From Alphaproteobacteria bacterium (lineage in GTDB: Bacteria > Pseudomonadota > Alphaproteobacteria > Bin95): a stretch of 64,000 nt of DNA. Shown here piece after piece: positions 7,032-24,682 of the stretch. Below the pieces are notes generated by a model. It searched no databases and was not told where the DNA came from. It was given only the letters and a program-made list of their open reading frames with translations. The position numbers and the translations under genes were made by a program. The stretch's first letter is position 1, and each line of letters starts with the position of its first letter. The stretch is from positions 480,001 through 544,000 of the forward strand of contig OZ219785.1 of assembly GCA_964291285.2 (NCBI GenBank), read 5' to 3'.

Positions 7032-7044
7032 GATCACACAGTGC

Positions 7045-8064
7045 TTACCGGAACGGCGGGGCGTAGAGGATGCCGCCCTTGGTCCAGAGCTGGTTCAGGC
7101 CTCGGGCGAGGCCGATGGCGGTGTTCTCGCCGATATGCTTCTCGAAGATCTCGCCGTAGTTGCCGCCGGTCTTGATGGCGTGGACGGCCCAGTCGGCAGA
7201 GAGGCCCAGCATCTCGCCGTAATTGCCCTCGACGCCCAGCAGGCGCTTGATCTCCGGGTCCTTGGTGTCGGCGGACGCCATGCTGTCCACGTTCGCCGCC
7301 GTGATGCCCTTCTCCTCGGCGATGATGAGCGCGTTCAGCACCCAGCGCACGATGTCGCCCCAGGCATTGTCGCCGTGGCGGACCAGCGGTCCGAGCGGCT
7401 CCTTGGAGATGATTTCCGGCAGGATGACGTGGTTTTCGGGATCCTCGAAGGTGGCGCGGGTCGCGGCCAGGCCGGAAGCGTCCGTGGTGTAAACGTCGCA
7501 GGCGTTCGCCAGATATTTCTGCTGCGCCTCGGCGTTGGTCTCGATCGGCACCGGCTCGTAGTTCATGTTGTTGGCGCGGAAGAAGTCGGCCAGGTTGAGC
7601 TCGGTGGTGGTGCCGGTCTGGATGCACACGGTCGCGCCGTCGAGCTCGGAGGCCGACGAAACGCCCATGTCCTTGCGGATCATGAAGCCCTGGCCGTCAT
7701 AGTAGTTGACGCCCAGGAAGGAGAATTTCAGGTCCACGTCCCGGCTCAGCGTCCAGGTCGTGTTCCGGTAGAGCAGGTCGATTTCACCGGAGGCAAGCGC
7801 CGTGAAGCGCGTCTTGCCGGTCGTCGGCGTGAACTTGATCGCATTCGGGTCGCCGAACACGGCCGCCGCCGTCGCGCGGCAGAAGACAACGTCGAAGCCG
7901 TCCCAATTGCCGCCGGAGTCCGTGAACGCGAAACCGGCGAGGCCGGTCGAAACGCCGCACTGGATGAAGCCCTTGGCTTTCACGTCATCCAGCGTCGCTC
8001 CGTGGGCCCCGACGGAGAACGCCGCGGCCGCAGCGGCGGCAACCAATGTGGTTTTGAGTCTCAT
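7045..8064 (-). CDS. aapJ: Amino acid ABC transporter substrate-binding protein
   Basis: Signal peptide, CGVSTGLAGF, RFTALASGEID, ISKEPLGP, GNYGEIFE, C-terminal YAPPFR. Confidence 0.92.
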   Translation of the reverse strand: MRLKTTLVAAAAAAAFSVGAHGATLDDVKAKGFIQCGVSTGLAGFAFTDSGGNWDGFDVVFCRATAAAVFGDPNAIKFTPTTGKTRFTALASGEIDLLYRNTTWTLSRDVDLKFSFLGVNYYDGQGFMIRKDMGVSSASELDGATVCIQTGTTTELNLADFFRANNMNYEPVPIETNAEAQQKYLANACDVYTTDASGLAATRATFEDPENHVILPEIISKEPLGPLVRHGDNAWGDIVRWVLNALIIAEEKGITAANVDSMASADTKDPEIKRLLGVEGNYGEMLGLSADWAVHAIKTGGNYGEIFEKHIGENTAIGLARGLNQLWTKGGILYAPPFR

Positions 8065-8260: not shown

Positions 8261-9058
8261 TCAGAGAGCGGCGAATTCCCGGAAGGCCTGCGCGCCCTCC
8301 GCGGCATGGCTGAGCGCAATGCCGTGACGGGCGCCGGGGAAGACCTGGAGCCGCGCATCGGGCAGCACCGTGAGCAGGTCCGCGGCTACGGTCATCGGCA
8401 GGAACGGGCTCGAATCGGGATGCAGCAGCAGCACCGGACAGGCGATTCGCCGGAATGTGTCGGACAGCTCCGCCCCCATCAGCAGGTCTGCGGCATCGAG
8501 CAGCGAGGCGGCGGCCGTCCGGCTCTGGACCTCGTGCATCCACTGCCGTTCGGCGGCCCCCACCTTGCCGTCTGCAAACCGGCGCGGAACCATCTCCTCC
8601 GACCAGCGCTCCATGCCGGCGGCCTCTACCGCCGCCCGCCAGGCGGCCACGTTTTGAATTGCAGGCCCGTAATGCCCGGTGGAGCAAGCGCAGACGCTCG
8701 CGATCCGCTCCGGTTCCCGGGCCGCGGTGAACAGGCAGGCAGTGCCGCCGAGCGACTCGCCGACGAGGTGGAAACGCCCGAAGCCCGCCGCGTCCGCGAC
8801 CGCCATGATGTCGTCCGCGAGCCCGTCGAAGGACCAGCGGTGCTCCGGCCCCGGCAGGGTCGAGCGGCCGAAGCCGCAAAGATCGAAGCGGGCGACGCGG
8901 AACCGGTCGATCAGGCCGGGCAGCCAGCCGGACCAGATGTGGCAATCGACCGCAACGCCGTGGCAGAACAGCACCGCTTCGCCGGGCGCGTTCCATGGCG
9001 GCACGAGGTCCACCGTTTCCATGTGGAGCGCGTAGCCGGGTCGCTGGAGCATGGTCAT
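8261..9058 (-). CDS. Alpha/beta-fold hydrolase
   Basis: FCHG oxyanion motif, DLCGFGRS, GESLGG nucleophile elbow, C-terminal GARH. Confidence 0.85.
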   Translation of the reverse strand: MTMLQRPGYALHMETVDLVPPWNAPGEAVLFCHGVAVDCHIWSGWLPGLIDRFRVARFDLCGFGRSTLPGPEHRWSFDGLADDIMAVADAAGFGRFHLVGESLGGTACLFTAAREPERIASVCACSTGHYGPAIQNVAAWRAAVEAAGMERWSEEMVPRRFADGKVGAAERQWMHEVQSRTAAASLLDAADLLMGAELSDTFRRIACPVLLLHPDSSPFLPMTVAADLLTVLPDARLQVFPGARHGIALSHAAEGAQAFREFAAL

Positions 9059-9064
9059 GGGCGC

Positions 9065-9102
9065 GCATGAAACGCACTTGCCCCCGGCTTGTCAAAACCG
9101 GC
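9065..9102 (+). repeat. 38-bp direct repeat, copy 1 (left of AAA+ ATPase gene)
   Basis: GCATGAAACGCACTTGCCCCCGGCTTGTCAAAACCGGC; 37/38 identical to 10350-10387. Confidence 0.9.
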
Positions 9103-9191
9103 CGCCATCGCCGCGCGGCCGCCCTGCTCAAGAGCAGGCAATCGCTTCATTTAACCTTGCATTTCTGGAATTGCACTCCATAATTGCAAGG

Positions 9192-10355
9192 ATGTTGCCG
9201 CGCCAGAAATCGCAAGTCGTTCGCGCCCGGCTGGACCGGTTCCCGGCTGTGGCGCTGCTCGGTCCGCGCCAGGCGGGCAAAACCACGCTGGCCGAACTTA
9301 TCGCCGAAGAGCGACCGAGCGTCTATCTCGATCTTGAGGACGCGGCCGACCGGGCGAAGCTGGGCGACGCCGCGCTTTACCTTGCCGGGCACGAAGACAA
9401 GCTGGTCGTCCTGGACGAAGTGCAGCGGGCGCCGGAACTGTTCCAGACGCTCCGGGGCCTCATCGACAGGGGCCGCCGCCGCGGCGTCCGGGCGGGCCGC
9501 TTCCTGCTTCTGGGTCCGGCGTCCATCGACCTGCTCAAACAGTCGGGAGAATCCCTTGCCGGCCGCATCTCCTATGTCGAACTGGGGCCGCTCGACCTTC
9601 TCGAAGTCGATGCCGGTGCGCGCGACAGGCTCTGGGTGCGGGGCGGGTTCCCGGACAGTTTCCTCGCCGGCAGCGGGAAAGACAGCGCCGTCTGGCGGGA
9701 GAATTTCATCCGCACCTACCTGGAGCGCGACATTCCGCAACTCGGGCCGCGCGTGCCGGCGGAAACCCTGCGCCGTTTCTGGACCATGCTGGCGCATATG
9801 CAGGGCGCCACGCTCAACGCGGCCCAGCTTGCGCGCGGGCTGGCAGTCGACGGCAAGACGGTCGCCGGCTATCTCGACCTGCTGGTCGACCTCCTGCTCG
9901 TGAGGCGGCTGCCGCCCTTCCGCGCCAATGTCGGCAAGCGCCTGGTGAAATCGCCGAAGGTCTATGTGCGCGACAGCGGCATCGTCCACACGCTGCTCGG
10001 CCTCGACGACCGCGAAGCGGTGCTGGGTCATCCGGTCGTCGGCGGAAGCTGGGAAGGGTTCGTGCTGGAAAACCTGCTCGGCGCGGTGCCCGAAAGGGCG
10101 AAAGCATGGTTCTACCGGACGGCTGCCGGTGCCGAAATCGACCTGGTGCTGGAGATGCCGGGCGGAAGGCTGTGGGCGGTGGAAATCAAGCGCAGCCTCG
10201 CGCCGAAGCTCGACAGGGGATTCCACCACGCGCGGGAAGACCTCGAACCGGAGCGCTCGTTCATCGTCTATTCCGGCGATGACCGTTACCCGAAGAGCGA
10301 AGGGATCGAGGTAATCGGCTTGCGTGAGCTGCTGGGGATGCTGGCGGCGGCATGA
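9192..10355 (+). CDS. AAA+ ATPase (AAA_14) with C-terminal DUF4143 / PD-(D/E)xK-like domain
   Basis: Walker A GPRQAGKTT, Walker B LDEVQ, ESLAGR, RGGFP, KSPKVYVRDSG, EIDLV...VEIK. Confidence 0.88.
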   Translation: MLPRQKSQVVRARLDRFPAVALLGPRQAGKTTLAELIAEERPSVYLDLEDAADRAKLGDAALYLAGHEDKLVVLDEVQRAPELFQTLRGLIDRGRRRGVRAGRFLLLGPASIDLLKQSGESLAGRISYVELGPLDLLEVDAGARDRLWVRGGFPDSFLAGSGKDSAVWRENFIRTYLERDIPQLGPRVPAETLRRFWTMLAHMQGATLNAAQLARGLAVDGKTVAGYLDLLVDLLLVRRLPPFRANVGKRLVKSPKVYVRDSGIVHTLLGLDDREAVLGHPVVGGSWEGFVLENLLGAVPERAKAWFYRTAAGAEIDLVLEMPGGRLWAVEIKRSLAPKLDRGFHHAREDLEPERSFIVYSGDDRYPKSEGIEVIGLRELLGMLAAA

Positions 10356-10387
10356 AACGCGCTTGCCCCCGGCTTGTCAAAACCGGC
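10350..10387 (+). repeat. 38-bp direct repeat, copy 2 (contains ATPase stop codon)
   Basis: GCATGAAACGCGCTTGCCCCCGGCTTGTCAAAACCGGC. Confidence 0.9.
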
Positions 10388-10402
10388 TACGATGGCCCCG
10401 TC

Positions 10403-11122
10403 ATGGCGATGCTCGAAGTCGAAATCTGGCGCGGGGAGGGCGGCGGCGGCGCCTGGCGGCGCTACGCCGTGCCGCACGAGGCCAACCAGACCGTGCTCGA
10501 CGTGGTGACGCATGTGCAGCGCTATCTGGACCCCTCACTCGCCTACCGTTTCGCCTGCCGGGTGGGCATGTGCGGCTCCTGCGCGATGACCGTCAACGGC
10601 CGCCCGCGCTGGACCTGCCGCACCCATGTCTCGCAGGCCGCGCGCAAGGGCCGGGTGCGGATCGGGCCGCTGCGCAACCTGCCGGTCATCAGGGACCTCG
10701 CGGTGGACATGGCGCCCTTCTTCGAGAAATGGCGCGACGCGGAGGCGCGGTTCGTGCCGCCGCCCGCGCCTGCCGAAGAAGCCGTCCGGCCGGACGAGCC
10801 GGGACGCATGGCCGCCGACGCCGGCATCGAGTGCATCAACTGCGCCGTCTGCTACGCCGCCTGCGACAGCGTGGCCTGGAACCCGGACTATCCGGGCCCG
10901 GCCGTGCTGAACCGCCTCTGGACGCTGGTGAACGACCGGCGCGACGGCGACCGCGACGGCCACCTGGACGCAGCCGGGGCGGGCTGCCACCTCTGCCGCA
11001 GCCACCAGGAATGCGCCGACGCCTGCCCGACCGGCCTCAACCCGACGGCCGCCATCGCCGGCCTGAAGCGCGAGGTCTTCCGCCGCGCGCTCGGCGGCGG
11101 CGCGCGGGGTCCGCGCCGATGA
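10403..11122 (+). CDS. Succinate dehydrogenase/fumarate reductase-family iron-sulfur subunit
   Basis: CRVGMCGSC...C (2Fe-2S), CINCAVCYAAC, CRSHQECADACP. Confidence 0.88.
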   Translation: MAMLEVEIWRGEGGGGAWRRYAVPHEANQTVLDVVTHVQRYLDPSLAYRFACRVGMCGSCAMTVNGRPRWTCRTHVSQAARKGRVRIGPLRNLPVIRDLAVDMAPFFEKWRDAEARFVPPPAPAEEAVRPDEPGRMAADAGIECINCAVCYAACDSVAWNPDYPGPAVLNRLWTLVNDRRDGDRDGHLDAAGAGCHLCRSHQECADACPTGLNPTAAIAGLKREVFRRALGGGARGPRR

Positions 11123-11445
11123 ACGAGGCCTGGCTGTTCGCGGCGCAGCGCCTCTCGGCAATGGTGATGGCGCCGCTGGTGCTGCTGCATCTGGGGGTCA
11201 TCCTCTATGCCGTCCGGGACGGGCTTTCCGCCGAGGAAATCCTGGCGCGCACCGAGGGCAGCCTGTTCTGGGGCGCGGTCTACGGGCTGTTCGTGCTGGC
11301 CGCCGCCGTGCATGCGCCCATCGGGCTGCGGGCCGTACTGAGGGAGTGGGGGCGCTGGCGGGGCGCAGGCCTGGACATCGCCATGACGATGTTCGGCCTC
11401 GTGCTGCTCGCGCTCGGCCTGCGCGCCGTGGCGGCCGTGCTGTGA
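11119..11445 (+). CDS. Sdh/Frd small membrane anchor subunit
   Basis: QRLSA...H, VHAPIGLR, three hydrophobic segments; ATGA overlap. Confidence 0.8.
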   Translation: MNEAWLFAAQRLSAMVMAPLVLLHLGVILYAVRDGLSAEEILARTEGSLFWGAVYGLFVLAAAVHAPIGLRAVLREWGRWRGAGLDIAMTMFGLVLLALGLRAVAAVL

Positions 11446-11768
11446 AGCGCGGACCCTGGTGGGCCTTCCTGCTGCACCGGCTTTCGGGCGTGGCGCTGGC
11501 GGTCTTCCTGCCGGTCCACTTCCTCGTGCTCGGCCTCGCGGTGGAGCGCGCGGCGCTTGATCGCGTGCTCGACTGGACGGACAATCCGTGGGTCAAGCTC
11601 GCCGAGGCGGGGCTGGTCGTGTTGCTGGCGCTCCACCTGACGGGGGGCCTGCGCGTGCTGCTGCTCGAGTTCGGGCGCTGGTCCGACCGCCAGCGGTCGC
11701 GGATTGCGGTGGCGGGCGGGCTGGCGCTGCTCGCGGGCTTCGGCTTCCTGGCGGCGGCCTTCGCATGA
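11442..11768 (+). CDS. Sdh/Frd cytochrome b-type membrane subunit
   Basis: LHRLSG, LHLTGGLR heme-ligand motifs; GTGA overlap. Confidence 0.8.
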   Translation: MKRGPWWAFLLHRLSGVALAVFLPVHFLVLGLAVERAALDRVLDWTDNPWVKLAEAGLVVLLALHLTGGLRVLLLEFGRWSDRQRSRIAVAGGLALLAGFGFLAAAFA

Positions 11769-13525
11769 TCGAGCGCCTCGACCGGGACATACTGATCCTC
11801 GGCTCCGGCGGGGCCGGGCTGTTCGCCGCGCTGCACGCCTACCGCGCCGACCCCGCGCTCGACATCGCCGTCGCAGCCAAGGGCCTGCTCGGCAAGAGCG
11901 GCTGCACCCGCATGGTGCAGGGCGGCTACAATGTGGCGCTCGCGCCCGGCGACAGCCTCGAACGCCATTTCATGGACACGATCGAAGGCGGGGCCTGGAT
12001 CAACCACCAGGAGCTGGCCTGGACGCTGATCGAGGGCGCGGTGGCGCGCATCCGCGAACTGGAAGACGAGATCGGCTGCTATTTCGACCGCAATCCCGAC
12101 GGCAGCATCCACCAGAAGGCGTTCGCCGGCCAGACCTTCGACCGCACCGTCCACAAGGGAGACCTCACCGGCATCGAGATCGTCAACCGGCTGATGGAGC
12201 AGGTCTGGGCGCGGGCGGTGACGCGGCTGGAGGAGCACCGGGCGGCGGCGCTGGTCCCCTCGCGCGACGGCTCCAGGCTCGCCGGCGTGCTGCTGATCGA
12301 CATTCGCACGGGCGTCCTGCGCTTCGTGCGGGCGAAGGCCGTGCTGCTCGCCACCGGCGGCGGCCCGACCATGTACCGCTACCACACCCCCTCCGGCGAC
12401 AAGACCTGCGACGGCATGGCGATGGCGCTGGAGGCGGGCCTGGCGCTGCGCGACATGGAGATGGTCCAGTTCCACCCGACGGGGCTCTATGCCGGCCCCG
12501 GCACGAGGATGACCGGCACCGTGCTGGAAGAGGGCTTGCGCGGCGCCGGCGGCCACCTGCTCGGCGGCGACGGCGCGCGCTTCATGGAGCGCTACGACGA
12601 CCGGCTGGAGCGCGCCACCCGCGACATCGTCAGCCGCGCCATGGCGAGCGAGATGCGTGCCGGGAACGTGACCGAAAACGGCGGGCTCTACATCTCGATG
12701 GCCCATCTCGGCCCCGCCTCGGTGGCCGAGCGCTTCAAGGGCATGGTCGAGCGCTGCCGGGACTGCGGCTTCGACCTCGCCGGCGGGCTGGTCGAGGTGG
12801 TGCCGACCGCGCATTACATGATGGGCGGCGTCGCCTTCGAGCCGGACACGACGACCGCCCTGCCCGGCCTCTACGCCGCCGGCGAGGACACGGGCGGCGT
12901 CCACGGCGCGAACCGGCTCGGCGGCAACGGCGTCGCCAACTCCACCGTCTATGGCGGCATTGCCGGCGACCGGATGGCGGCGGACGCGGCCCGCGAGCGC
13001 GCCTTCCCCGACCCGGACGAGGCGGTGCTGGAGGCCGCCGCCGCGCGCTGCCTGAGGGTCTTCGACCGGCCGCCCGGCGACCTCGCCGGCATCCGCGACC
13101 GGCTCGCGGACCTGATGTGGGACGAGGTCGGCATATTGCGCTCGGCCGGGAGCCTCGAGCGCGCCGAAGCCGGGCTCGCCGCGCTCGCGGCGGAGGTGGA
13201 GGCGGCCGGCGCGCCCGGCGGCCCTACCTTCAACCTCGCCTGGCACGACCGGCTGAACCTGGAAAGCCTCGTGACCGTCTCGCGCGCGATCACGGCGGCG
13301 GCCCGCGCCCGCGAGGACTCGCGCGGCGCACACTACCGCGAGGACTTCCCCGAGACCGGAGACCTCGCCGCCACGCGCTATACCGCCGTGCGTCTGGAGG
13401 ACGGCGAATTCGCCTCCGCTTCGGAACCCGTCGCCTTCACCCGCGTCAGGCCCGGCGAGTCGCTGCTGGACCAGGCCCCGGGACAGGCCGCAGGTCCACC
13501 GGCGGAGCATGATCGTTCAGGTTGA
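11765..13525 (+). CDS. Sdh/Frd/NadB-family flavoprotein
   Basis: GSGGAG, LATGG, QFHPT, RDIVSRA, AHYMMGG, HGANRLGGN, SRGAHYREDFP. Confidence 0.88.
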   Translation: MIERLDRDILILGSGGAGLFAALHAYRADPALDIAVAAKGLLGKSGCTRMVQGGYNVALAPGDSLERHFMDTIEGGAWINHQELAWTLIEGAVARIRELEDEIGCYFDRNPDGSIHQKAFAGQTFDRTVHKGDLTGIEIVNRLMEQVWARAVTRLEEHRAAALVPSRDGSRLAGVLLIDIRTGVLRFVRAKAVLLATGGGPTMYRYHTPSGDKTCDGMAMALEAGLALRDMEMVQFHPTGLYAGPGTRMTGTVLEEGLRGAGGHLLGGDGARFMERYDDRLERATRDIVSRAMASEMRAGNVTENGGLYISMAHLGPASVAERFKGMVERCRDCGFDLAGGLVEVVPTAHYMMGGVAFEPDTTTALPGLYAAGEDTGGVHGANRLGGNGVANSTVYGGIAGDRMAADAARERAFPDPDEAVLEAAAARCLRVFDRPPGDLAGIRDRLADLMWDEVGILRSAGSLERAEAGLAALAAEVEAAGAPGGPTFNLAWHDRLNLESLVTVSRAITAAARAREDSRGAHYREDFPETGDLAATRYTAVRLEDGEFASASEPVAFTRVRPGESLLDQAPGQAAGPPAEHDRSG

Positions 13526-13675: not shown

Positions 13676-14707
13676 ATGACCCGTTCTTCCGCCAAGCGGT
13701 CGAGTTCCCGTTCTCTCGCCAATCTCGCTCCGGACGAAGTGAAATCCGTGGTGGACGGTTACACGGCGATTTACGACGCCGGAGAGCAGGGCAGAAGAGA
13801 GCAATACCGCTCGCTCGTAAATCACTATTACGACCTGGTTACCGACTTCTACGAATTCGGCTGGGGCCAGTCCTTTCACTTCGCGCCAAGGCGCCGGGGC
13901 GAGAGCTTCAAGGCTTCGATGGTCAGGCACCAGCATTATCTCGCCGACCGGCTGGTCCTGAAGCCGGGCATGCAGGTGCTCGATGTGGGATGCGGGGTCG
14001 GCGGACCGATGGGCAACCTGGCGCGCTATTCCGGCGCCGGCTTCGTCGGCATCAACAACAACACCTACCAGATCGAACGCGCGAAACATCACACCCGGGA
14101 TGTCGGGTCGCGGTGCCGCTTCATCCACGGCGACTACATGCGGATTCCCGAAGGCGAGGATTGCTACGACGCCGCGTTCGCCATCGAGTCCATGCCCCAC
14201 GCGCCGGACAAGGCAGGCGCGTTCCGCGAAATCCTGCGCGTCCTGCGCCCCGGCGCCTGTTTCGCGGGTTACGAGTGGTGCCTCACCGATGATTTCGACC
14301 CCGAAAACGCGGAGCACCAGCGGATCAAGAACGAGATCATGGTTGGGGATGCGCTGCCGGAAATCGCGTCCATGCCGGAGATTTGCGACGCATTGCGCAC
14401 CGCCGGGTTCGAGCTGCTGGAAGCCAGGGACCGCGCCCCCGAGTCGGATCCGCAAACGCCCTGGTACCGCGCCCTGCAGGGCCGCGACTTCACGCTTTCG
14501 AGCATCCCGCGCACGCCTTTCGGCCGCGCCCTCACCAATCAGACGCTGCGGGTCGGAGAGAGGCTGCGGCTGTTTCCTGAGGGCTCCCGCGCGGTCAGCA
14601 CGCTGCTGAACGCGGCGGCCGACGCGCTGATCGAAGGCGGCAGGTCCGGCATCTTCACGCCGATGTTCTTTTTCCTGGCCCGCAAGCCTCCGCGCTCCGG
14701 CGACTGA
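13676..14707 (+). CDS. smt: Sterol 24-C-methyltransferase (SMT/ERG6-like)
   Basis: Region I YYDLVTDFYEFGWGQSFHFA, region II VLDVGCGVGGP, GINNNTYQ, region III FAIESMPHAP, region IV YEWCLTD, C-terminal GIFTPMFFFLARKP. Confidence 0.93.
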   Translation: MTRSSAKRSSSRSLANLAPDEVKSVVDGYTAIYDAGEQGRREQYRSLVNHYYDLVTDFYEFGWGQSFHFAPRRRGESFKASMVRHQHYLADRLVLKPGMQVLDVGCGVGGPMGNLARYSGAGFVGINNNTYQIERAKHHTRDVGSRCRFIHGDYMRIPEGEDCYDAAFAIESMPHAPDKAGAFREILRVLRPGACFAGYEWCLTDDFDPENAEHQRIKNEIMVGDALPEIASMPEICDALRTAGFELLEARDRAPESDPQTPWYRALQGRDFTLSSIPRTPFGRALTNQTLRVGERLRLFPEGSRAVSTLLNAAADALIEGGRSGIFTPMFFFLARKPPRSGD

Positions 14708-14742
14708 ACGCCGCGCGTCCTCGGCCGCAGGGCCGCCGGCGC

Positions 14743-17700
14743 TCAGGACAGGGAACGGGCGGAAGCCGCTTCCGGCAGGGGCGGCACCGACGCGCCGGCG
14801 CAGGCAGCAGGGGCGGCGAGGTTCAACCGGTCCCGGCGGCGGCGCTCATAGAGGCTGAGCGCATGCAGCGGGAAATACTGCCGGTAGAGCACGTAATCCA
14901 GGAGCGCCGTCCGGAAGAACACGCCGGCCATGTTCTGTTTGGGCCACCCCCCTTCGGCGTCCTGCGTGTCGAGCAGGAACCGGGCGCCGCGCGACACCGC
15001 GGCCCAGTTCGAGTCGCCCGCCTCGAGGAGCGCGATCAGCGCCCACGCGGTCTGGATGACCTGGCTCTCGCCGTGCGGGACATAGCGGCCGGTCAGGCAG
15101 CCGCTGTGGTGCTCGCCCCATCCTCCGTCTTCCCGCTGGCGTTCCAGCAGCCAGCGGCAGGCCGAGCGCAGCGCCGGGTCGCCGGGACGGGACCCGGCGG
15201 CAAGAAGGCCCCTGATGCCGAACAGGGTGCCGTAAATGAACTGGACGCCCCATACGCCGCGCCAGGAGCCGTCCATCGCCTGCGTCCGGCGCAGCCAGGA
15301 TTCGGCCCGGGAGACGGCGCCCGCCGCGCCGTCCGCGATCTCCGGAAACCGCTCCCTGCACGCGGCGAGCGCGGCGAGGCAGGATGCCGTGCATTCCACA
15401 AAGGAATGCTCCGTCATCGAGTCGCCGAACATCTCGGCCGGATTCAGCCACTCCAGGCCGAAAGCCGAACGCCGCGCCTCATAGCTGCCGAAGCCGCCGT
15501 CGCGGTTCTGGCCGCGCAGCATGAAGGCGACCGCATCGCCGAGCGCCGCCCTGTCGGCGTCGCCGCCCCGTGCCGCGATGAGTCCGAGCACCGCCTCCGC
15601 CGTGCAATCGCTCACCGGCCAGCCATGCCACCCGCCCGCAAAGCACCAGCCGCCCCTGGGGTCGGTTCGATAGGCTTCGCGAAACCCTTCGAAGCTCGTA
15701 TCGATCTGCTCGCCCAGCAGGAAACCGGCGCCGCGCGCGAGCGCGTCCCCGACCCCGGCGGGCTCGGGCAGCGCCGCCAGCGCCTGCAGCGCGAACCCCG
15801 TGTCCCAGGAGGCGCTTCTCGCTCCGGTGACGCGCGCGCCCTCTTCCTCGTCTTCCCAGATCCAGCCGTCCAGCTGCGCGAGCGCCTGCCGGCAGTCGGC
15901 GTCGTCCGGATCGTGCAGCCACAGCGCAAGGATGTTGAGAAGGCCGCTGACCGGGGAGATGCTTGTGTGGCTGGTGGTCTGCAGCTCCCACCTGATGCGC
16001 CCGACAATCGCATCCGTGCATCGCGCGCGGAGGCGCCTGCCGTGAACCCGCTCGAACAGCCGCGCCAGCCCGTATCCGGCCCTGAGCCAGAGGCCCGGCC
16101 TCGCATACAGGTCGGCATCCCGCAGGCGACCCCGGGCAGCGGAGAAGTCAACGCCGGCAAAGCCCTGCGGGAACAGCTCCTCCCGCAGCGATTCGATCAG
16201 CGGCGTGACGGGCGCCTGGAACCGGCGCGCGTAAATCGCCGCCATCGCCATGTAGATGAGCCGCGTGTGGCAGTACCAGTTCGAGGGGTGCAGCGGTATC
16301 CGGCGCGGCAGGCTCCACAGTTCCGGCAGAACCGCGTTCACCCCGCGCCAGTCATAGAGGTTGAGGAGCGCCAGCCAGAATTTTCCCCAGCTCGGAATGC
16401 CGAGAACCCCCTCGGCCTGCAGGAACCGCCGGGCCGGCTCGACCAGGGGATCCTCCCGCCCGACGCCCAGCAGCCTCGCCGCGACATAGACGAGTGCGGT
16501 GACGAACAGGTGAGGCGGCGAGTGCTCGTGCAGGCCCCATGCGCCGCCCTCGAGCCGGGTCCGCTCGAAGGAGCGCAGCACACGCCGGCGGCGGCCCGGT
16601 TCCAGCGGCCGTCCGATTAGATGGTGCAGCAGCGCATATTGCGCGGTGAGCATGGGGCACCAGACCATCTCGCCTTCCCACGCGCCGTCCTCTCTCTGGA
16701 GGCTCAACAGGCGCGCGGCCGCGCTCTTCAATGCCGGACCGGCATCGGGCGATTCGACCTCCTTCGAGCGGGCGGGCCTGGAGGCCTCGCCTCCGGAAGG
16801 CATGGAGTACAGGAACGCGCGGGCCAGGCTGTCCCGGGTTTGCCTGCTTTCTTCCCGGCCCTCGCGACTCGCCTGCCGGAGCTGCCGGACACCGCGCTGG
16901 AGCCACCAGAGGCGAACGGCGAGCGCATTGAAGATGGTCCGGGTCCGATGCGAAGCGAACCGGCGGAAGGAGAACGGAATCTCCCGGGTCAGCGCCCGGG
17001 CCACCGTTCCGCAGAATGCGAGGGTCATGCCGGTCGCGGACCGGTCCTCGCAGGCGAGTATCCGCGTGGTCCGGTCCCGGTACGCGGAATTCGCCCGCCA
17101 GCCCCGGTAGATCGCGGATCTGAGGACCACCGCTTCCACGCGATGATCGGCGAAGACCTCGTAGAGCCCCATTGCGAGGAACTCGGGAATGCGGGTCGCC
17201 CGGAAGCGTTCGGCGGCGAAGTCCCGAAAGCGCTCGTTCTCGGCGAGCGTCAGCGCATCGCCGAACCCGAGTGTCATGCCGACCGCCGTCATGGGATGAT
17301 AGTGCCCGGCGGCGTCGCCGATCAGCACCCGGCGCGGGCTCAGCTGATTGGCCGCCGCATGGAATTGGCCCGCCCGCAACGCCTCGACGAAGGCCGGCCC
17401 GAGAGCCCCCGGCAGCAGCCCGGCGCAGGATTCCGACAGGAAGGCAATCCGGTCCCGGGGCGTCCAGCGGTCCAGCGGAAGATCGACGATGACCCGGACG
17501 CAGCCGTCCGCCAGGCCGTATATGAGGATCGGACCCGGCCCGCCCAGCACCACATGCCCGTAGCCTTCGAAGGGCAGGTCCGCCCCGCCTATGGTGACCC
17601 CCAGCATCCGCGAGCAGAGCATCGGGTCCGTGGAGAGACCCAGCGACTGGCGCACGATCGAGGCCCGGCCGTCGGCGCCGACGACGCGCGCGGCGGTTAT

Positions 17701-18144
17701 GGAGCGCTCATCGCCGCCAACGGAAAAGGCGACCCGCCCGTCATCGACCGCATTGACCCGCGCGTGGGAAATGAAATCGACGCCGGCTTCGTCCGCGATG
17801 GCGTCGCGGAGGCTCGAGACGAGCAGCGCATGGTCGCATGCCAGGCCCCGGGACCCGTCCGGATAGGGAAGCAGGATCGGCTCCGAGCCGTCCTCCGGAA
17901 ACACCACGAATCCCTTGCCCGGCGTGGCTCCGGGCAGCCGGTCCGTGTCTATCCCGATGTCGCGCAATATCCTGACGGCCGGCGGATGCAGCCACTCGCC
18001 GGCCAGGCGCGCCGATGCCCTGGGATTGGCTTCGAGCAGGGCCACCCGGGCGCCCTTGCGCGCATGGGCGAGCGCGCAGAGGCTCCCCACCGGGCCCGCG
18101 CCGACAATGGCTGCGTCGTAAGGCCGCCCGGCGGCACCGCTCAT
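14743..18144 (-). CDS. Squalene epoxidase-oxidosqualene cyclase fusion protein (1133 aa)
   Basis: N-terminal FAD monooxygenase: GAGPVG, LAGEWLHP, GADG, IGDAAGHYHPMTAVGMT. C-terminal OSC: WYCHTR, HGWPVSDCTAE, QW repeats, NPAEMFGD, VECTAS, GVWGVQF. One open frame; ATG overlaps the CYP51 stop (ATGA). Confidence 0.92.
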   Translation of the reverse strand: MSGAAGRPYDAAIVGAGPVGSLCALAHARKGARVALLEANPRASARLAGEWLHPPAVRILRDIGIDTDRLPGATPGKGFVVFPEDGSEPILLPYPDGSRGLACDHALLVSSLRDAIADEAGVDFISHARVNAVDDGRVAFSVGGDERSITAARVVGADGRASIVRQSLGLSTDPMLCSRMLGVTIGGADLPFEGYGHVVLGGPGPILIYGLADGCVRVIVDLPLDRWTPRDRIAFLSESCAGLLPGALGPAFVEALRAGQFHAAANQLSPRRVLIGDAAGHYHPMTAVGMTLGFGDALTLAENERFRDFAAERFRATRIPEFLAMGLYEVFADHRVEAVVLRSAIYRGWRANSAYRDRTTRILACEDRSATGMTLAFCGTVARALTREIPFSFRRFASHRTRTIFNALAVRLWWLQRGVRQLRQASREGREESRQTRDSLARAFLYSMPSGGEASRPARSKEVESPDAGPALKSAAARLLSLQREDGAWEGEMVWCPMLTAQYALLHHLIGRPLEPGRRRRVLRSFERTRLEGGAWGLHEHSPPHLFVTALVYVAARLLGVGREDPLVEPARRFLQAEGVLGIPSWGKFWLALLNLYDWRGVNAVLPELWSLPRRIPLHPSNWYCHTRLIYMAMAAIYARRFQAPVTPLIESLREELFPQGFAGVDFSAARGRLRDADLYARPGLWLRAGYGLARLFERVHGRRLRARCTDAIVGRIRWELQTTSHTSISPVSGLLNILALWLHDPDDADCRQALAQLDGWIWEDEEEGARVTGARSASWDTGFALQALAALPEPAGVGDALARGAGFLLGEQIDTSFEGFREAYRTDPRGGWCFAGGWHGWPVSDCTAEAVLGLIAARGGDADRAALGDAVAFMLRGQNRDGGFGSYEARRSAFGLEWLNPAEMFGDSMTEHSFVECTASCLAALAACRERFPEIADGAAGAVSRAESWLRRTQAMDGSWRGVWGVQFIYGTLFGIRGLLAAGSRPGDPALRSACRWLLERQREDGGWGEHHSGCLTGRYVPHGESQVIQTAWALIALLEAGDSNWAAVSRGARFLLDTQDAEGGWPKQNMAGVFFRTALLDYVLYRQYFPLHALSLYERRRRDRLNLAAPAACAGASVPPLPEAASARSLS

Positions 18145-19550
18145 CGGAAAACGCTCGGCTCCACGCGGCGGCGGTAGCGGACCCGGCACGGCGTCTCGGG
18201 CCCCGTCACCCAGCTGCCGTAATTCGGGCGTGGAAACTTCGGCCCGGCGACGAAGTCGAAGCGGTCGAGCAGAACCGTCCAGATCGCCTTGAGCTGCATA
18301 TAGGCGAAATTCTTGCCCATGCACGCATGTTTGCCGCCGCCGAAGCCGATCAGGGCGTAATGATGTTGCCTGTCCTCGCTGGCGGGCGGCGCGAAACGGT
18401 CCGGGAAGAACCGCTCCGGATCGGCGAAAACCCGGGGCAGGCGGTGGGAAACCGCCGGCGACACCATGGCCATGGTGCCGGCGGGCACGACACTGCCCCC
18501 GTAACGGAGCGGTTCGAGCACCTTCCGGATCAGCAATATCAGCGGCGGGTGCAATCGCTCGCATTCGCGCACGGCGTTTTCCATCGCCGGCTGGCGCTGA
18601 AGGCTGTCGAGGCTCATCGACCCCGCTTCGCGGTAAACCTCCCGCGCCTCCTCCCTCAACCGTGCCAGGTAGGAGGGCGTCCTGAAGAGCTCCAGGCCGG
18701 TCCAGGTCGCGAGCACCGCGCTGGTGTGCTGGCCGGCGAACAGCACGGTCAGCAGGATCCCCGTGATCTCGTCGTTGCTGAGCGCACGGCCGTTCTTGTA
18801 GCGCGCATTCATGAGCGTTTGCATGAAGTCGTCGGGACCGGCCCCGGCATTGCGGCGCGCCGCCATGATTCCACCGAAGAGCTCCGCCACCTTCCGGCGG
18901 GCCCGGTCGCGGCTTCGATGCGCCGGGGTGGGAAGTCTGGGAAGGAAGAATCCGAGCGTGTTGATGCCCTTCTGCAGGTCGTGGTAGGCCTCGGCGAAGC
19001 CGGTATCCACCCGGTCGCGAACCTCCTGCCCGATCAGGCAGCGGCTGGCGATCCTGACGGTGAGCTCGTTCATCGCGTGCGGCAGGTCGATTTCGCCCTC
19101 CCCGCCGAGGGCGTCGGCGAAAGCGCTCGCCTCCTCGAACATGATGAGGGCGAATTTCCGCATGGCGGCTTCGCGGAGCGCGGGAAACAGGAACCCCAGC
19201 TGCTCCGCCATGATTTCCGGCGAGGTGTCATAGGCCACGCCGCGCCCGAAGACGGGCACGGTGAAGCGATAGACCGCCTTGGCGTTCAACTGGGTCTCGG
19301 GCGCCCTGAAATAGAAGTCGTGGGCTTCCGGCCCGGTGAAGAGAACGAAGTCGCGAAGTCCCAGCCTGAAGCGGAAAAGGTCGCCATGCCGGCGCCAGCC
19401 GCGGCTCAGCATGGCGACCGGGTCCCGCTGAAATTCCCTGAGATGGCCGATCAGCGGCCAGCTGCCCGCCAGTTCCGGAACGGGCGCCTCCGACGGCGGC
19501 GGGAGGTCCGCGGACTGCAGCGTCGCCATGCTGTGAGACCGGTTCGCCAT
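18141..19550 (-). CDS. cyp51: Sterol 14-alpha-demethylase (cytochrome P450 CYP51)
   Basis: SRS1 YRFTVPVFGRGVAYD, I-helix FAGQHTS, ECER (ExxR), heme motif FGGGKHACMG. Confidence 0.92.
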   Translation of the reverse strand: MANRSHSMATLQSADLPPPSEAPVPELAGSWPLIGHLREFQRDPVAMLSRGWRRHGDLFRFRLGLRDFVLFTGPEAHDFYFRAPETQLNAKAVYRFTVPVFGRGVAYDTSPEIMAEQLGFLFPALREAAMRKFALIMFEEASAFADALGGEGEIDLPHAMNELTVRIASRCLIGQEVRDRVDTGFAEAYHDLQKGINTLGFFLPRLPTPAHRSRDRARRKVAELFGGIMAARRNAGAGPDDFMQTLMNARYKNGRALSNDEITGILLTVLFAGQHTSAVLATWTGLELFRTPSYLARLREEAREVYREAGSMSLDSLQRQPAMENAVRECERLHPPLILLIRKVLEPLRYGGSVVPAGTMAMVSPAVSHRLPRVFADPERFFPDRFAPPASEDRQHHYALIGFGGGKHACMGKNFAYMQLKAIWTVLLDRFDFVAGPKFPRPNYGSWVTGPETPCRVRYRRRVEPSVFR

Positions 19551-19558
19551 CCCCGTCC

Positions 19559-20659
19559 TCAATGGATGAACGGCAGCATCGAGAAGCGCGCCCGCTGCGT
19601 GTAGCGCTCCCACAGCTCGCCATATTTGGCGCGGCAGCGGCGCTCATCGCGTCTCGAGCGGTGCCACAGGAGACCCGCCAGCCACGCGGGCAGCAGGTAG
19701 GGCCCCCAGGATGCGAGCCCGGTGGTCAGCGCGAAAGCGAGATAGATACAGATCTCGCCGGTATAGTTGAGGTGCCGTCCGATACCCCAGAATCCGGAGA
19801 CCAGGAGGCGCCCGTCCAGGGTCCGGGCGGGTTGCCCCCAGATCCTGATATCGGGGTCGCGCTTGAAGCGGTGCTTCTGCTGGTTGGCGCCGCGGAAGAG
19901 CCAGAAGCCGAAGGCGAACAACAGGACGATGGCCGCCGCGGCGGCCGGAGACAACGGGTCCGGCGCGTGAACCAGCCACCAGCCGGGAAGGCAGTAGAAG
20001 AACGGCACCAGCACGTAGTCGCCCCAGACCAGCATCCATCCGAAGCGCTCGCTGATGATGTCCCAAGTGTGGATCATGCCGTGCTCGAACTGGAAGTAGT
20101 TGAGCACGTAGAGGAAGGTGAACGCCTGATAGAGCGCCATCGCCAGGGTAAGCTCGCCATAGGTTTCCCACTGCACGACGGCGAAGGAGGCGTTGACGAG
20201 CGCCAGACCGATGAGCGAGGGGCGGTAGCTGAAGAGCTTCAGGTCGATCCCGAACCAGACCGGGCCGGCATCGACGCCGCCGAAATAGCCCCGCCAGAAT
20301 CCCGGCGCCGCGCCGGGCGCCCGCATCCCCCGCCAATACAGCCAGCCGGCAAGGGCGAAGGCGAAGGCGTTCGCCGCCACGAACAGGGCGGCGAAGTGGG
20401 TGTAGAGCACCGAAAGGGAGAACCAGCCGAGGAACTGGGCGAGGCCCGCCGCGAGCGCGGCGATCAGGAAGAGCGCGAGGCCGTTCAGCTTGTAGATGCG
20501 CTCATTGCCCTCGGCGTCCGGCCCCGCGATGCGGCGGCCGGGAAGGAGCATCGAACCCAGGAACAGCAACGCGACGAACGCCAGCGCCATTGCCGCCGCT
20601 TCGAGCAGCGCTCCGCCCGACAGCGCGGACGACAGGAGGAACGCTTCAGGCGGGGACAC
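19559..20659 (-). CDS. ERG4/ERG24-family sterol reductase (probably Delta14-reductase)
   Basis: Polytopic membrane protein; TWDIISERFGWMLVWGD, ANQQKHRFK, LLVSGFWGIGRHLNYTGE, RDERRCRAKYG. Confidence 0.88.
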   Translation of the reverse strand: MSPPEAFLLSSALSGGALLEAAAMALAFVALLFLGSMLLPGRRIAGPDAEGNERIYKLNGLALFLIAALAAGLAQFLGWFSLSVLYTHFAALFVAANAFAFALAGWLYWRGMRAPGAAPGFWRGYFGGVDAGPVWFGIDLKLFSYRPSLIGLALVNASFAVVQWETYGELTLAMALYQAFTFLYVLNYFQFEHGMIHTWDIISERFGWMLVWGDYVLVPFFYCLPGWWLVHAPDPLSPAAAAAIVLLFAFGFWLFRGANQQKHRFKRDPDIRIWGQPARTLDGRLLVSGFWGIGRHLNYTGEICIYLAFALTTGLASWGPYLLPAWLAGLLWHRSRRDERRCRAKYGELWERYTQRARFSMLPFIH

Positions 20660-21731
20660 CGCCGTCCCCGGACCCGCGGGCCAGAGTTTCCCGCCACTTG
20701 CGCACCGTCACTTCCTGAAAGGCCCTGACCACGGGATTGAACTCGACGGGGCGGGCGTCCCAGTGTTTCTCGTAACCCTCTTGCTCCGCTTCGAGCGCGA
20801 ACCGGTCCTGGTCGAGCAGGGGGGCGATCAGCATACGGTTGGAGATCTTCATGACCGCGGTCATGGCGAAACGCGGAATGCGCACCGGCAGGAACGGAAT
20901 TTTCAGAGACTTGAAATAGAACAGGAAGAACACCCGGGTGGTGCGCTCGTCCATGGGCAGCACGAACAGCCAGTGCTTGATTGCGTCATCGGTGTTCGAC
21001 CACTGGTAGGGATATTCGTAGCAGAGCTCCATGCGGTTGGTGTTGAGCCGCTCGTGGTCCACGAACAGTCCTGAAATGCGCCCGCGCCCGACCCGGGTAT
21101 CGTAAGCGAGATGCACATTGTCCCCGACGGTTTCGCAGGAGGCGAGCGTGGCTCCGTCGAAGGGCCGGTAGCGGCGGTGCAGATGCGCGTGGGTGAAGTC
21201 GCTCACATTGTCGATCACCATCGAGTGGTGCGCCGACCACGTGAAGCGCAGCGGCACGCAGGTCCAGCGCCCGGGCCCCTCCAGTTCGGGAATCTCCGGG
21301 ATCCGGTGCTGTTCCGCCTGCTCCGGGTCGCCGGGGAAGAGCCACACCAGCCCGTAGCGGACCTTTACCGGGTAGGTCTTGAGCGCAAGCCGCGGAAAGC
21401 TCCGCCCGTTGCCGTCATAGGGAACCCCGGCGGGCCGTTCCCTGCCGCCATATTCCCAGCCGTGATAGGCGCACACCAGCCGGCATCCCTCCACATGGCC
21501 GATGGAGAGCTTGAGCTGGCGGTGCGCGCAGCGGTTCTCGATCGCCTGGAACGAGCCGTCCGTTCCCCGGAACAACGCAATCGAATGTTTCCAGAAGACG
21601 ACCTCGACCACCGTCCCCGGCTTGACCCGGCGCACTTCCTCGACCGCATACCAGTAATTCGGGTCCATGCCCGCGGCGCGCGCCTGCTGGCGGAGCGTGC
21701 CGGCCTCCTCGAAGCAGGGCGGCGGCCTCAT
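20646..21731 (-). CDS. Rieske non-heme iron oxygenase, SdmA-like sterol C-4 demethylase component
   Basis: Rieske CAH...CAYHGW, mononuclear Fe motif DNVSDFTHAHLH; SdmA identity inferred from position in the sterol operon next to an SDR. Confidence 0.75.
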   Translation of the reverse strand: MRPPPCFEEAGTLRQQARAAGMDPNYWYAVEEVRRVKPGTVVEVVFWKHSIALFRGTDGSFQAIENRCAHRQLKLSIGHVEGCRLVCAYHGWEYGGRERPAGVPYDGNGRSFPRLALKTYPVKVRYGLVWLFPGDPEQAEQHRIPEIPELEGPGRWTCVPLRFTWSAHHSMVIDNVSDFTHAHLHRRYRPFDGATLASCETVGDNVHLAYDTRVGRGRISGLFVDHERLNTNRMELCYEYPYQWSNTDDAIKHWLFVLPMDERTTRVFFLFYFKSLKIPFLPVRIPRFAMTAVMKISNRMLIAPLLDQDRFALEAEQEGYEKHWDARPVEFNPVVRAFQEVTVRKWRETLARGSGDGGVPA

Positions 21732-22888
21732 GTCGCGCTCCCGCCGGGCACCGCATGCAAGCCCTGGCGCGGCGCGGGAGGTTCCGCCTCTCTCGCCGCG
21801 CGTTGCTCCGGGGCGTCGGCGCGCGGCGGTTTCGCGGACGGATTTACGATCGCGTTGCGGCCGTGGTGGAACGCGTAGGCTTCGTGAACCGCGTCGCGGA
21901 TGCCGGTCGGCCGGTAGCCGAGCTCGCGCTGCGCCTTGCCGGTGTCGGCATGGCGGCGCTTTTTCAGCAGGCGTATGGCGCCGGGGGTGAAACGCTGGGG
22001 AAAGTCCGGGTGGAAGCGGCTCAGGTAGGAGCTCGCCACTTCCGAAAAGGCGAGCATCAGGGGCGCCGGAATCCGCCGGCGCGGCCTCGGGACGCCCGAG
22101 ACCTCCTCATACAGGCCCACGATCTCCGAGATGGTCTTGTACTCGCTGCTGAAGATGTATTTCTCGCCCGAGCGGCCATGATGCATGCACAGCAGGTGCC
22201 CCTCGACAATGTCGCGCGCCGCGACGAACTCGAACCCGCCATCGATATAGGCATGAAGCTTGCCGTTGGTGTAGTCGCACAGGGTCCTTCCCAGCCGCGA
22301 GGGCAGATAGTCGGCGCCTCCCACCACCGCGCAACAGGTCGCGACCACGACATCCTGCCCCGTGGCCGCCGCGCGCCAGCATTCCTGCTCAACCAGCGAC
22401 TTGCTGCGCTCGTAGGGCATCGTGCGCTCCATGGGATAGAACGGCATCGTCTCGTCGCTGGGCGCGGACGGATCGTCCGGATCGTAACCGACCGCGCTGA
22501 AGGAGCCGGTTACGACCACGCGCCCGGCCTCGGCCTCCCGCGCCGCCTGCAGCACGTTGCGGGTGCCGCGAACATTGCACTCGAACAGCTCCCGGCGATG
22601 GGCGCGGTTGCCCCCGACGGTCGAGATCTTGGCCGCGACATGATAGACGCCCTGACATCCGGCGAGCGCCTGCCTGGTGGCATTCAGGTCCCGGATGTCG
22701 CCGAACACGCGCTCCACATCGAGGCCTTCCAGCGCCTCATTATTGTCCTCATGCCTCAGCAACACCCGGACCCGCACGCCGTCGTCGAGCAGCCGGCGCA
22801 CGAGATTGGCGCCGACATGTCCGGCCGAACCGGTAACGAAAACGGGCGGCATCGACGAACCCGCCGGCATGCTCGACCGGGACGTCAT
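21728..22888 (-). CDS. Extended SDR / 3-beta-HSD-like protein, SdmB-like decarboxylase-reductase
   Basis: VTGSAGHVG, NVRGTRNV, TGS, YERSK catalytic motif; ATGA overlap with the Rieske gene; start may be 22870 or later. Confidence 0.75.
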   Translation of the reverse strand: MTSRSSMPAGSSMPPVFVTGSAGHVGANLVRRLLDDGVRVRVLLRHEDNNEALEGLDVERVFGDIRDLNATRQALAGCQGVYHVAAKISTVGGNRAHRRELFECNVRGTRNVLQAAREAEAGRVVVTGSFSAVGYDPDDPSAPSDETMPFYPMERTMPYERSKSLVEQECWRAAATGQDVVVATCCAVVGGADYLPSRLGRTLCDYTNGKLHAYIDGGFEFVAARDIVEGHLLCMHHGRSGEKYIFSSEYKTISEIVGLYEEVSGVPRPRRRIPAPLMLAFSEVASSYLSRFHPDFPQRFTPGAIRLLKKRRHADTGKAQRELGYRPTGIRDAVHEAYAFHHGRNAIVNPSAKPPRADAPEQRAAREAEPPAPRQGLHAVPGGSAT

Positions 22889-23318: not shown

Positions 23319-23363
23319 TAGTTTCGGGGGCAGGATTTGAACCTGCGACCTTCAGGTTATGAG
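23319..23363 (-). mobile_element. 3' half of tRNA-fMet(CAT), att-like remnant (not an intact tRNA)
   Basis: Reverse complement CTCATAACCTGAAGGTCGCAGGTTCAAATCCTGCCCCCGAAACTA = anticodon loop, T arm and degenerate acceptor 3' strand; 5' half absent. Confidence 0.85.
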
Positions 23364-23489
23364 ACCCGTCTTTATCTTGCGGCCACGCGCGGCCACCGAG
23401 TTCTTTTCTCGTGTTGATCGTTGTGTCGACGGATTTTCCGGCGATCTTACAATGGCGGCATGCCAGAAAAACCCGGAAAACGCGTCGCC

Positions 23490-24682
23490 AGGGTGCGCAC
23501 GACGATTACCAGGCGGGCCGTCGAGGCGTTCCAGCCGGGCACAAGCCCTGGATCTCCTAGGACGACAAGCTGACCGGTTTCGGCGTTCGCATCCAGCCAA
23601 CGGGGACCAAGGTCTTCCTCGTCAACTACCGCGCCGGCGACGGTGGGCGGAAGCGCCCAACAAGCGGGTCGCGATCGGTTACTACGGCAAGGTCACCGTC
23701 GAGCAGGCCCGGAAGCTGGCCCAGAACCTGCTCGGCCAGGTCGCCGGCGGCGCCGGTCCCGCCTATGAACGTGCCAAGGCGCGCGCGATGCCCACCCTCG
23801 GCGAGGCCTTCGAAGAGTACATGGCGGTCAATCCCAACCGTTCGAAACGGACCGGCGAGCTCTACCGTTACGAGGCGAACCGCTACCTGGGCGACTGGCT
23901 CACGCGCACTCTCGACTCCATTGCCCGCCGGGATGTCGAGATGAGGTTCAACAGCATCACCGCGGACCATGGATGGTCACCGGCCAACCGGGCAATTTCA
24001 TTGCTGCGCTCCGTCTATCGCCGGCCCTGCGTCGACTACGAAGGGCTGCGTCCCCCTGGAGCTTCCGACCACCCGGCAACTCGCGGTCATTCTCGAGCGC
24101 CGGCAGGCCGAGGCCGGCGACTACCCGGTCGAGGCCCGCGGCTGGGCGTTCCCCTCGCGCACCGCCGCCACCGGCCATGTTCAGGACCCGGATCACCTCT
24201 AATACCAACGGTCGTTGATTGGAACCTATAGCAGAGCCTCCCTCCGCAGCTCGCCCCCTGAGCCGAGGCCTCCTACTGCAAGAGGTAATCTCCGCCGAGA
24301 GAGGCTAATCGGTTCTTATCTGTGGCCGGTGGTATAAGCCCGCATCGGCAAGACCGGCGGCACCAAGTTCTGGTTCCACGGGCTGCGGAACAGTTTCATC
24401 ACCGTGGCCGAGCGCGAGCTGATGCTGCCGCCCTCACTGGCCAAGCGGCTGGTCAACCACGCCCGGCCCAACGATGTCACCGAGGGCTATGCGGCCGACT
24501 GGACCATCGCGCAGCTTCGGGAGCCGGCTCAGAAGATCGCCGACCGGATCGAGGTCTTGACCCGAGAGCCGCAAGCTCCCTGGCCAGTGCCCGCGGCAAC
24601 TCGGCTGAGGCTGTCGGAACTCTCGAACCGTACCGCGAGCCATCGCTGCGGCCGTGCCCCTACCACCGCACCGAGCCCCTGA
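23490..24682 (+). pseudogene. Degraded tyrosine integrase (arm-DNA-binding plus catalytic domains)
   Basis: Fragments in several frames: (TAG)DDKLTGFGVRIQPTGTKVFLVNYR, KRVAIG...VEQARKLA, WAFPS, FHGLRNSF, LVNH...TEGY; premature stop, frameshifts, internal deletion, insertion; 5' boundary approximate. Confidence 0.85.
24203..24334. mobile_element. 132-bp MITE / internally deleted IS (IS630-like ends)
   Basis: Imperfect terminal inverted repeats (TACCAACGGTCGTTGATTGGAACC vs TACCACCGGCCACAGATAAGAACC), TAA on both sides; removal rejoins the integrase frame. Confidence 0.7.

Follow-up and report, generated by a model that had tools for sequence, protein, structure and literature searches.

Can one bacterial polypeptide carry both the epoxidation of squalene and the cyclisation of its epoxide in sterol synthesis? 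The question is raised by a single gene in a 64,000-nucleotide stretch of the alphaproteobacterial contig OZ219785.1 (hereafter the window, meaning this whole stretch at its full length), which an earlier reading of the letters alone (the sequence-only reading) had described as a squalene epoxidase (SE) fused to an oxidosqualene cyclase (OSC). As analysed here, one bacterial gene at positions 14743-18144 on the minus strand is predicted to encode both the SE and the OSC of sterol synthesis, in that order.

A single gene with epoxidase and cyclase domains

The gene forms a single stop-free frame of 1133 amino acids (aa) followed by a stop codon. Its start codon shares the letters ATGA with the TGA stop codon of the cytochrome P450 gene that lies upstream, and the proteins of relatives begin at the residue encoded at 18144, which together make 18144 the likely start; a longer frame of 1273 aa, opening at 18564 and overlapping the P450 gene, was rejected on the same grounds. 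Along the translation, Pfam models match in the order FAD_binding_3 (residues 10-301, 71.4 bits), SE (PF08491; residues 154-345, 66.4 bits against a cut-off of 20.1), SQHop_cyclase_N (residues 473-766, 163.1 bits) and SQHop_cyclase_C (residues 777-1100, 184.4 bits), and these matches are far beyond chance.

The features from which the fusion had been proposed are all in place. A flavin adenine dinucleotide (FAD) monooxygenase with the SQE-like motifs GEWLHP (residues 49-54) and GDA...HPMTAVGMT (residues 276-291) runs without a stop, within one minus-strand frame, into a cyclase carrying DCTAE, the OSC type of motif, at residues 846-850. No SE or cyclase match other than those in the fusion was found in the 6.1-Mb genome, and a gene resembling squalene synthase is located on a different contig.

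Continuity of the junction

The fused state extends well beyond this contig. In a survey of a protein collection clustered at 90% identity, the best 120 clusters (71-100% identity to the window protein) were full-length fusions without exception (120/120), each of 1098-1184 aa and with both domain sets. A second survey covered one-genome-per-species contigs, and among the best 80 of 396 stretches encoding a relative, one uninterrupted tblastn match ran over both halves in 78 loci; of the two that remain, one is ended by a contig edge and the other (L017) is split by the insertion of a DDE transposase. When 79 fusions were aligned, with L017 and L061 left out, residues 21-1100 proved to be nearly free of length variation, the exceptions being a deletion in the window copy, to which we return below, and a few short stretches that some sequences have inserted behind residues 796 and 940. 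Over 78 pairs among 13 close sequences, the median dN/dS is 0.17 in the OSC half and 0.22 in the SE core, and it reaches 0.37 in the SE helices and 0.41 in the linker. Every part of the fusion is under purifying selection.

A single frame might also arise as an artefact of assembly or polishing that masks two adjacent genes, and the neighbouring state does occur in relatives. In Fischerella sp. CENA71 (L100), the SE and OSC genes (431 and 675 aa) have the order and strand of the halves of the fusion, share one frame and are set apart by one stop codon and 6 nt, and two loci of the sponge-type clade described below have one stop between the halves. Against such an artefact stand the uninterrupted matches in 78 of 80 independent loci, drawn from short-read and complete long-read assemblies alike, the narrow length range of all 120 best protein clusters, the purifying selection on the linker and the assembled contigs of sequencing runs that cross the junction. 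A Logan contig of run X1, a possible source of the window, spans 14600-18300 with 0 differences. Contigs of relatives cross 16663-17065 in run X4 (DNA), 16625-16957 in run X22 (a metatranscriptome library), and 16884-17290 and 16685-16845 in run X23 (a polyA library). The RNA-library contigs come from relatives and the libraries may hold DNA, so that they show continuity and not transcription. An origin of the single frame in assembly or polishing is, in our view, barely credible.

The two sponge-clade loci with an in-frame stop between SE and OSC are a Longimicrobiales metagenome-assembled genome (MAG; L119) and a Bryobacterales MAG (L136), in which fission, a pseudogene or a sequencing error are each possible.

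Relationship of the two halves to human sterol enzymes

The SE half (16816-18144, minus strand; residues 1-443) consists of an FAD-binding core and a C-terminal helical region. Human SQLE (6c6n) is its only sequence match in the PDB (E 3e-24, 22% identity), and in a Foldseek comparison the same structure was matched with a TMt of 0.80 over 440/450 residues, ranking above other flavoprotein monooxygenases of the PHBH type. Among 35 sequences, G15/G17/G20, G159 and G276/D277 are invariant and D158 nearly so, at sites that we take to be the GxGxxG, DG and GD motifs of FAD binding. Residues 300-443 are helical in the AlphaFold2 (AF2) model and are the counterpart of the C-terminal helical part of SQLE; within them, residues 395-427 form an amphipathic helix with a net charge of +8. 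No transmembrane-grade 19-residue hydrophobic window was found in the protein except in a strand region. We infer from these matches that the N-terminal flavoprotein half would epoxidise squalene, turning it into 2,3-oxidosqualene.

The OSC half (14743-16734, minus strand; residues 471-1133) matches human lanosterol synthase (1w6k) with an E value of 3.6e-130, 36% identity and a Foldseek TMt of 0.82. It passes the broader squalene/oxidosqualene cyclase model TIGR01787 (494.6 against a cut-off of 322.7), and its score with the model for hopene cyclases is much smaller (265.1). The DCTAE motif, D846-E850, lies at 15595-15609 on the minus strand, and by alignment to the human enzyme D846 corresponds to D455, C847 to C456, C918 to C533, H626 to H232 and Y888 to Y503. 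D846, C847, T848, A849, C918 and H626 are invariant among the 35 sequences and Y888 nearly so; we take the catalytic roles of D455, its cysteine partners and H232/Y503 to be those given with the human OSC structure. The C-terminal half would be a class II cyclase that protonates the epoxide through D846 of DCTAE and then cyclises it. Both human folds are matched nearly end to end and the catalytic equivalents are kept, whereas the human enzymes are two proteins and the window protein is one chain joined by about 25 residues.

Weighing the predicted functions

We consider it likely that 14743-18144 encodes a genuine single-polypeptide SE/OSC and that it closes a bacterial sterol operon. Several observations weigh against this reading, namely the limit on the RNA-library contigs given above, a substitution at a conspicuous position of human SQLE, a cyclase score below its cut-off, two product-specificity positions of ambiguous identity and the loss of a conserved segment from the SE half with a local drop in model confidence.

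The substitution bears on whether the N-terminal flavoprotein is an SE at all, or another FAD monooxygenase that acts later on the sterol. Human Y195, which we take to be important in SQLE, is aligned to F79, and no NCBIfam model exceeded its cut-off over this half, the best being a Ubi-OHases subfamily model at 72.7 bits. Yet the Pfam SE model passes its cut-off, and human SQLE is both the sole PDB sequence match and the best structural match, ahead of PHBH-type enzymes. Moreover, the OSC needs oxidosqualene in a genome with no other SE, and relatives hold the same two genes as an adjacent SE-OSC pair. A later-acting monooxygenase is very improbable, and an SE remains our assignment for the N-terminal half.

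The other points concern the cyclase and its product. The best NCBIfam model for the OSC half, TIGR03463 (osq_cycl), reaches 735.9 bits, below its cut-off of 851. At the product-specificity positions, human 381/449/453, the window protein has A775/H840/V844. The passages of Wei et al. 2016 that deal with these positions give T, C or Q, and V for lanosterol and Y, H and I for cycloartenol, and state that in the bacteria tested V453 correlated completely with lanosterol, position 453 alone being predictive. With a valine aligned to human V453, lanosterol is the probable product, a call that is tentative because A775 and H840 match neither set cleanly, leaving it to hang on one residue. Cycloartenol or another triterpenol would be favoured by H840 at human C449, histidine being the cycloartenol-synthase residue in those passages, by A775, which fits neither class, and by the score under the osq_cycl cut-off; V844 points the other way, given how completely V453 tracked lanosterol in the bacteria covered there. 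We hold a product other than lanosterol to be unlikely.

A deletion in the epoxidase half

The sequence-only reading had not picked up an in-frame deletion of 21 nt (7 aa) in the SE half of this copy, at 17331-17341 on the minus strand, after residue 268 and just before the FAD-binding GD motif. The missing residues are R-P-R-V-T-Y-G in the nearest relatives. The deletion is unique to the window copy: R-x-R-x-x-Y-G is kept in 78/78 other aligned fusions, its R, Y and G are nearly invariant, and R-x-R-x-x-[FY]-G is also kept in distant clusters (45-50% identity). The intact fusions and human SQLE agree in their spacing to the GD motif, and the family spacing from N266 is not found in the window copy. 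An AG.CCGCGC direct repeat borders the 21 nt, which the contigs of runs X4, X22 and X23 include and that of run X1 lacks.

In the AF2 model of the window copy, the predicted local distance difference test (pLDDT) falls below 50 at residues 268-285 and no strand precedes the GD motif, whereas an intact relative of 96% identity has values of 63-83 in the same region, with the strand present. With seven conserved residues missing before GD, the epoxidase activity of this copy is uncertain. The protein may work here only as a cyclase, its epoxidase half inactivated by the deletion, in which case the bacterium either makes no sterol alone or relies on oxidosqualene from elsewhere. The uniqueness of the deletion among 79 aligned fusions, its removal of nearly invariant residues, the broken spacing shared with human SQLE, the contrast between the two AF2 models and the lack of a second SE in the genome all favour such a loss, as does a species of the same genus in which a transposase insertion splits the SE half. 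On the other side, the deletion is in frame and falls within a predicted loop, AF2 confidence does not measure activity, and the remainder of the SE half is intact, with a dN/dS of 0.26 and few substitutions relative to the nearest relative. We regard inactivation of the epoxidase as a serious possibility, although one that falls short of an even chance, and retain a bifunctional SE/OSC as the preferred reading.

Relaxed selection on the SE half was also considered and set aside, as the comparison of the window copy with its nearest relative (dN/dS 0.26) contains few substitutions and is uninformative. In the same-genus species (L017), the DDE transposase gene (open reading frame (ORF) 6242-7897) lies in the SE half at L017:6088-8001, and a 965-aa frame with the cyclase is left.

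Linker and inter-domain arrangement

The charged linker of the sequence-only reading was only partly upheld. The stretch ASREGREESRQ...PSGGEASRPARSKEVESP is present, at about residues 425-465, and it belongs mostly to the helical region of the SE itself: residues 300-443 are helical and the SE half spans 440/450 SQLE residues, which leaves only about residues 444-470 as linker-like. This true inter-domain linker, of about 25 residues (16735-16815, minus strand), is delimited by AF2 confidence, conservation and dN/dS. The pLDDT drops below 50 at residues 451-457, the lowest between the two halves. Conservation is lowest in this part of the protein (0.58-0.73 for residues 361-470, which is still clear), and the linker length is essentially fixed in the 79 sequences.

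The AF2 model of the whole window protein has a mean pLDDT of 80.9 and a predicted template modelling score (pTM) of 0.81, and the intact relative of 96% identity reaches a pTM of 0.85. Since no more than about 56% of the residues fall within the larger domain, such high pTM values suggest a defined arrangement of the two domains. A Foldseek search with the window model found no PDB chain covering both halves. Docking of the separated halves of the intact relative (residues 8-391 and 485-1100, with 35-row alignments for each) gave a score of 0.00; the SE C-terminal helices were cut off in this set-up, and the result is neutral on channelling.

The two halves are homologues of enzymes that sit on one membrane face. 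In the fusion, the amphipathic SE C-terminal helices followed by a linker of fixed length would hold both halves at the same membrane surface, and the single chain would keep the two active sites in a 1:1 ratio. Channelling of oxidosqualene, which the sequence-only reading had put forward, would be plausible on this model, the points in its favour being the constant length of the linker, the high pTM and a membrane surface predicted to be common to both halves.

Distribution and evolution of the fusion

The 80 best loci are spread over seven named phyla, comprising Pseudomonadota (58), Nitrospirota (5), Binatota (4), Thermodesulfobacteriota (2), Actinomycetota (2), Acidobacteriota (2) and Verrucomicrobiota (1), with 6 unplaced. 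Many come from records with sponge-symbiont names, and the sequencing runs with partial matches are mostly labelled as sponge metagenome. Close to the window the picture is uneven: a match was found in 9/16 other species of its genus, 6 of these intact, and in 0/8 from the other genera of its family. Within its own genus and family, the pattern is patchy and accessory. The fusion family moves horizontally among many phyla, with many members from sponge-associated records.

More distant relatives extend this range. A full HMMER scan of representatives at 50% identity returned further SE-OSC fusions at 45-52% identity (clusters P0121-P0126). In a second set of 77 loci, collected around an unfused Myxococcota OSC, SE and OSC are fused in frame in 35 (7 of which are contigs already among the first 80), adjacent on one strand with stops between them in 12, and accompanied by an SE elsewhere in the locus in 9, while 21 have no SE within the locus. 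Fused forms also occur in Sandaracinaceae, where a Sandaracinus MAG has one ORF of 1161 aa, and in Nostocales-type cyanobacteria, where Calothrix rhizosoleniae SC01 has one of 1115 aa; other cyanobacteria have adjacent separate genes.

A tree of 83 OSC domains from named loci requires 6 or more changes of the fused state, and in it a strongly supported multi-phylum clade of sponge type is fused in 33/35 rows. A tree of cluster representatives gathers every fused row (15/15) into a single clade of 19 that is well supported. The latter tree is compatible with a single origin of the fusion, an idea that we dropped because the named-locus tree needs at least 6 changes of state. Instead, fusion and fission seem to come about readily and repeatedly in a single lineage of bacterial OSCs, as far as these trees can tell.

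A broader scenario would join these strands. The epoxidase half would be decaying in the window's genus as symbionts shift to oxidosqualene from the host or from neighbours, a rigid two-site fusion at the membrane surface would hand over oxidosqualene, and its compactness would aid the spread of the operon between phyla in sponges. As a whole, we see this scenario as a long shot.

Other combinations of these domains were seen in passing. Four clusters (P0211, P0220, P0236 and P0263; 1137-1200 aa) have an SE domain with a C-terminal squalene/phytoene synthase and look like epoxidase-synthase fusions, and P0220 and P0236 contain a short cyclase-like stretch between the epoxidase and synthase domains. 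In two SE-cyclase fusions the cyclase half has decayed, DCTAE being replaced by AKTTAE in P0133 and by DCAAE in P0137, and both have lost or altered segments near the equivalents of H232 and C533.

Sterol operon context

The fusion is preceded on the minus strand by genes for further steps of sterol synthesis. Starting from the gene that overlaps its start, these are a cytochrome P450 in the CYP51 position (18141-19613; Pfam p450, 193.3 bits), a member of the sterol C-14 reductase family ERG4/ERG24 (19559-20659; Pfam ERG4_ERG24, 233.4 bits), an SdmA-like Rieske oxygenase of the kind involved in bacterial sterol C-4 demethylation (20646-21731; Pfam Rieske and VanA_C) and an SdmB-like NAD(P)-dependent reductase (21728-22888; Pfam Epimerase and 3Beta_HSD). 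The best NCBIfam model for the SdmA-like gene is the 4beta-methylsterol monooxygenase SdmA (402.2 bits) and that for the SdmB-like gene is SdmB (294.3 bits), both below a cut-off of 600. A sterol methyltransferase (SMT) gene (13676-14707, plus strand; Pfam Sterol_MT_C, 76.9 bits, with methyltransferase domains) converges on the fusion. The operon order is thus SdmB-like, SdmA-like, ERG24, CYP51 and the fusion last, with the SMT converging from the other strand.

This neighbourhood recurs across the 80 best loci, in which some of the misses are due to contig ends. A P450 gene lies upstream on the same strand in 63/80 loci, 62 of which have it directly beside the fusion at a distance of 0-33 nt, ERG24 lies upstream on the same strand in 63/80, and the SdmA-like and SdmB-like genes are present in 62/80 and 61/80, respectively. 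An SMT gene is found in 53/80 loci and, in 35, is downstream on the opposite strand as in the window.

By gene content and order, the window operon matches the clusters of steroid genes (CSG) that Kelly et al. 2022 (Microbiome 10:164, PMC9531527) describe, in the portions of the paper concerned, for symbionts of Ircinia sponges, where 115/537 MAGs from 10 phyla contain them and both horizontal transfer and a low omega are reported. ERG24, CYP51 and lanosterol synthase (LSS/ERG7) have the same order and strand in the CSG as the corresponding genes in the window. The two genes further upstream, SdmB-like and SdmA-like in the window, are called DFR and hypothetical in the CSG, and the opposite strand at the 3' end carries SMT or FDFT1 there and SMT here. 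The two systems also agree in spanning many phyla with horizontal transfer and in purifying selection, the LSS omega of 0.17 standing beside a dN/dS of 0.17 for the OSC half. They differ in the naming of the third gene, which those portions give simply as lanosterol synthase, and in that the list there of five enriched genes does not include squalene monooxygenase. The squalene monooxygenase step of the CSG is accounted for if the SE half of the fusion supplies it.

Relation to described systems

The sequence-only reading overstated the novelty of the gene. The architecture fills the 120 best clusters and 78/80 loci, recurs in Myxococcota and cyanobacteria and has a name in the literature. In the excerpts consulted of Brown et al. 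2023 (Nat Commun 14:1859, PMC10070321), "fused SMO/OSC homologs" (SMO, squalene monooxygenase) appear in a Methods sentence, their N-termini having been trimmed for a tree. Those homologs likewise combine, in one polypeptide, a squalene monooxygenase at the N-terminus with an OSC at the C-terminus and come from metagenomic sterol clusters with sterol methyltransferases and sdmAB homologues, and the window protein, with both domains in one ORF, is a fused SMO/OSC in the sense used there. Unlike the present account, the excerpts give no description, distribution or assay of the fusion, and the window copy differs from the homologs by its 7-residue deletion. No other mention of an SE-OSC fusion and no biochemical study of one was found in the literature searched, where supplementary cluster tables might show it. 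The architecture is abundant in public data and was already noticed, and the window gene is an ordinary member of its family.

A natural fusion within a bacterial sterol pathway is also known from Methylococcus capsulatus, whose CYP51-ferredoxin is treated by Lamb et al. 2021 (PMC7947880). That protein joins an enzyme to a redox partner, whereas the fusion in the window joins what would be consecutive enzymes of the pathway.

Although the gene architecture is not new, interest lies in its biochemistry. A natural one-chain SE-OSC is a handy object for work on channelling, on the electron supply of SE and on a minimal squalene-to-lanosterol module. The fusion would also explain where the epoxidase step sits in sponge-symbiont steroid operons annotated with lanosterol synthase only, and sterol synthesis by bacteria matters for the interpretation of sterane fossils and of the "sponge biomarker".

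Other features of the window

Just upstream of the operon, in a stretch of lower G+C content (0.63 against about 0.69), an ORF at 23359-24231 on the plus strand has the Arm DNA-binding domain of phage integrases. It was considered as a conserved mobile context and rejected, since it is not kept beside the operon in the 80 loci, and no tRNA gene was found in the window. Beyond it, a 1014-aa ORF with a Calx-beta domain occupies 24660-27704 on the minus strand, with an 887-aa ORF on the opposite strand that has no Pfam match. On the far side of the SMT gene, an ORF with AAA_14 and DUF4143 domains (9051-10355, plus strand) lies upstream of a succinate dehydrogenase/fumarate reductase-like pair at 10324-13525.

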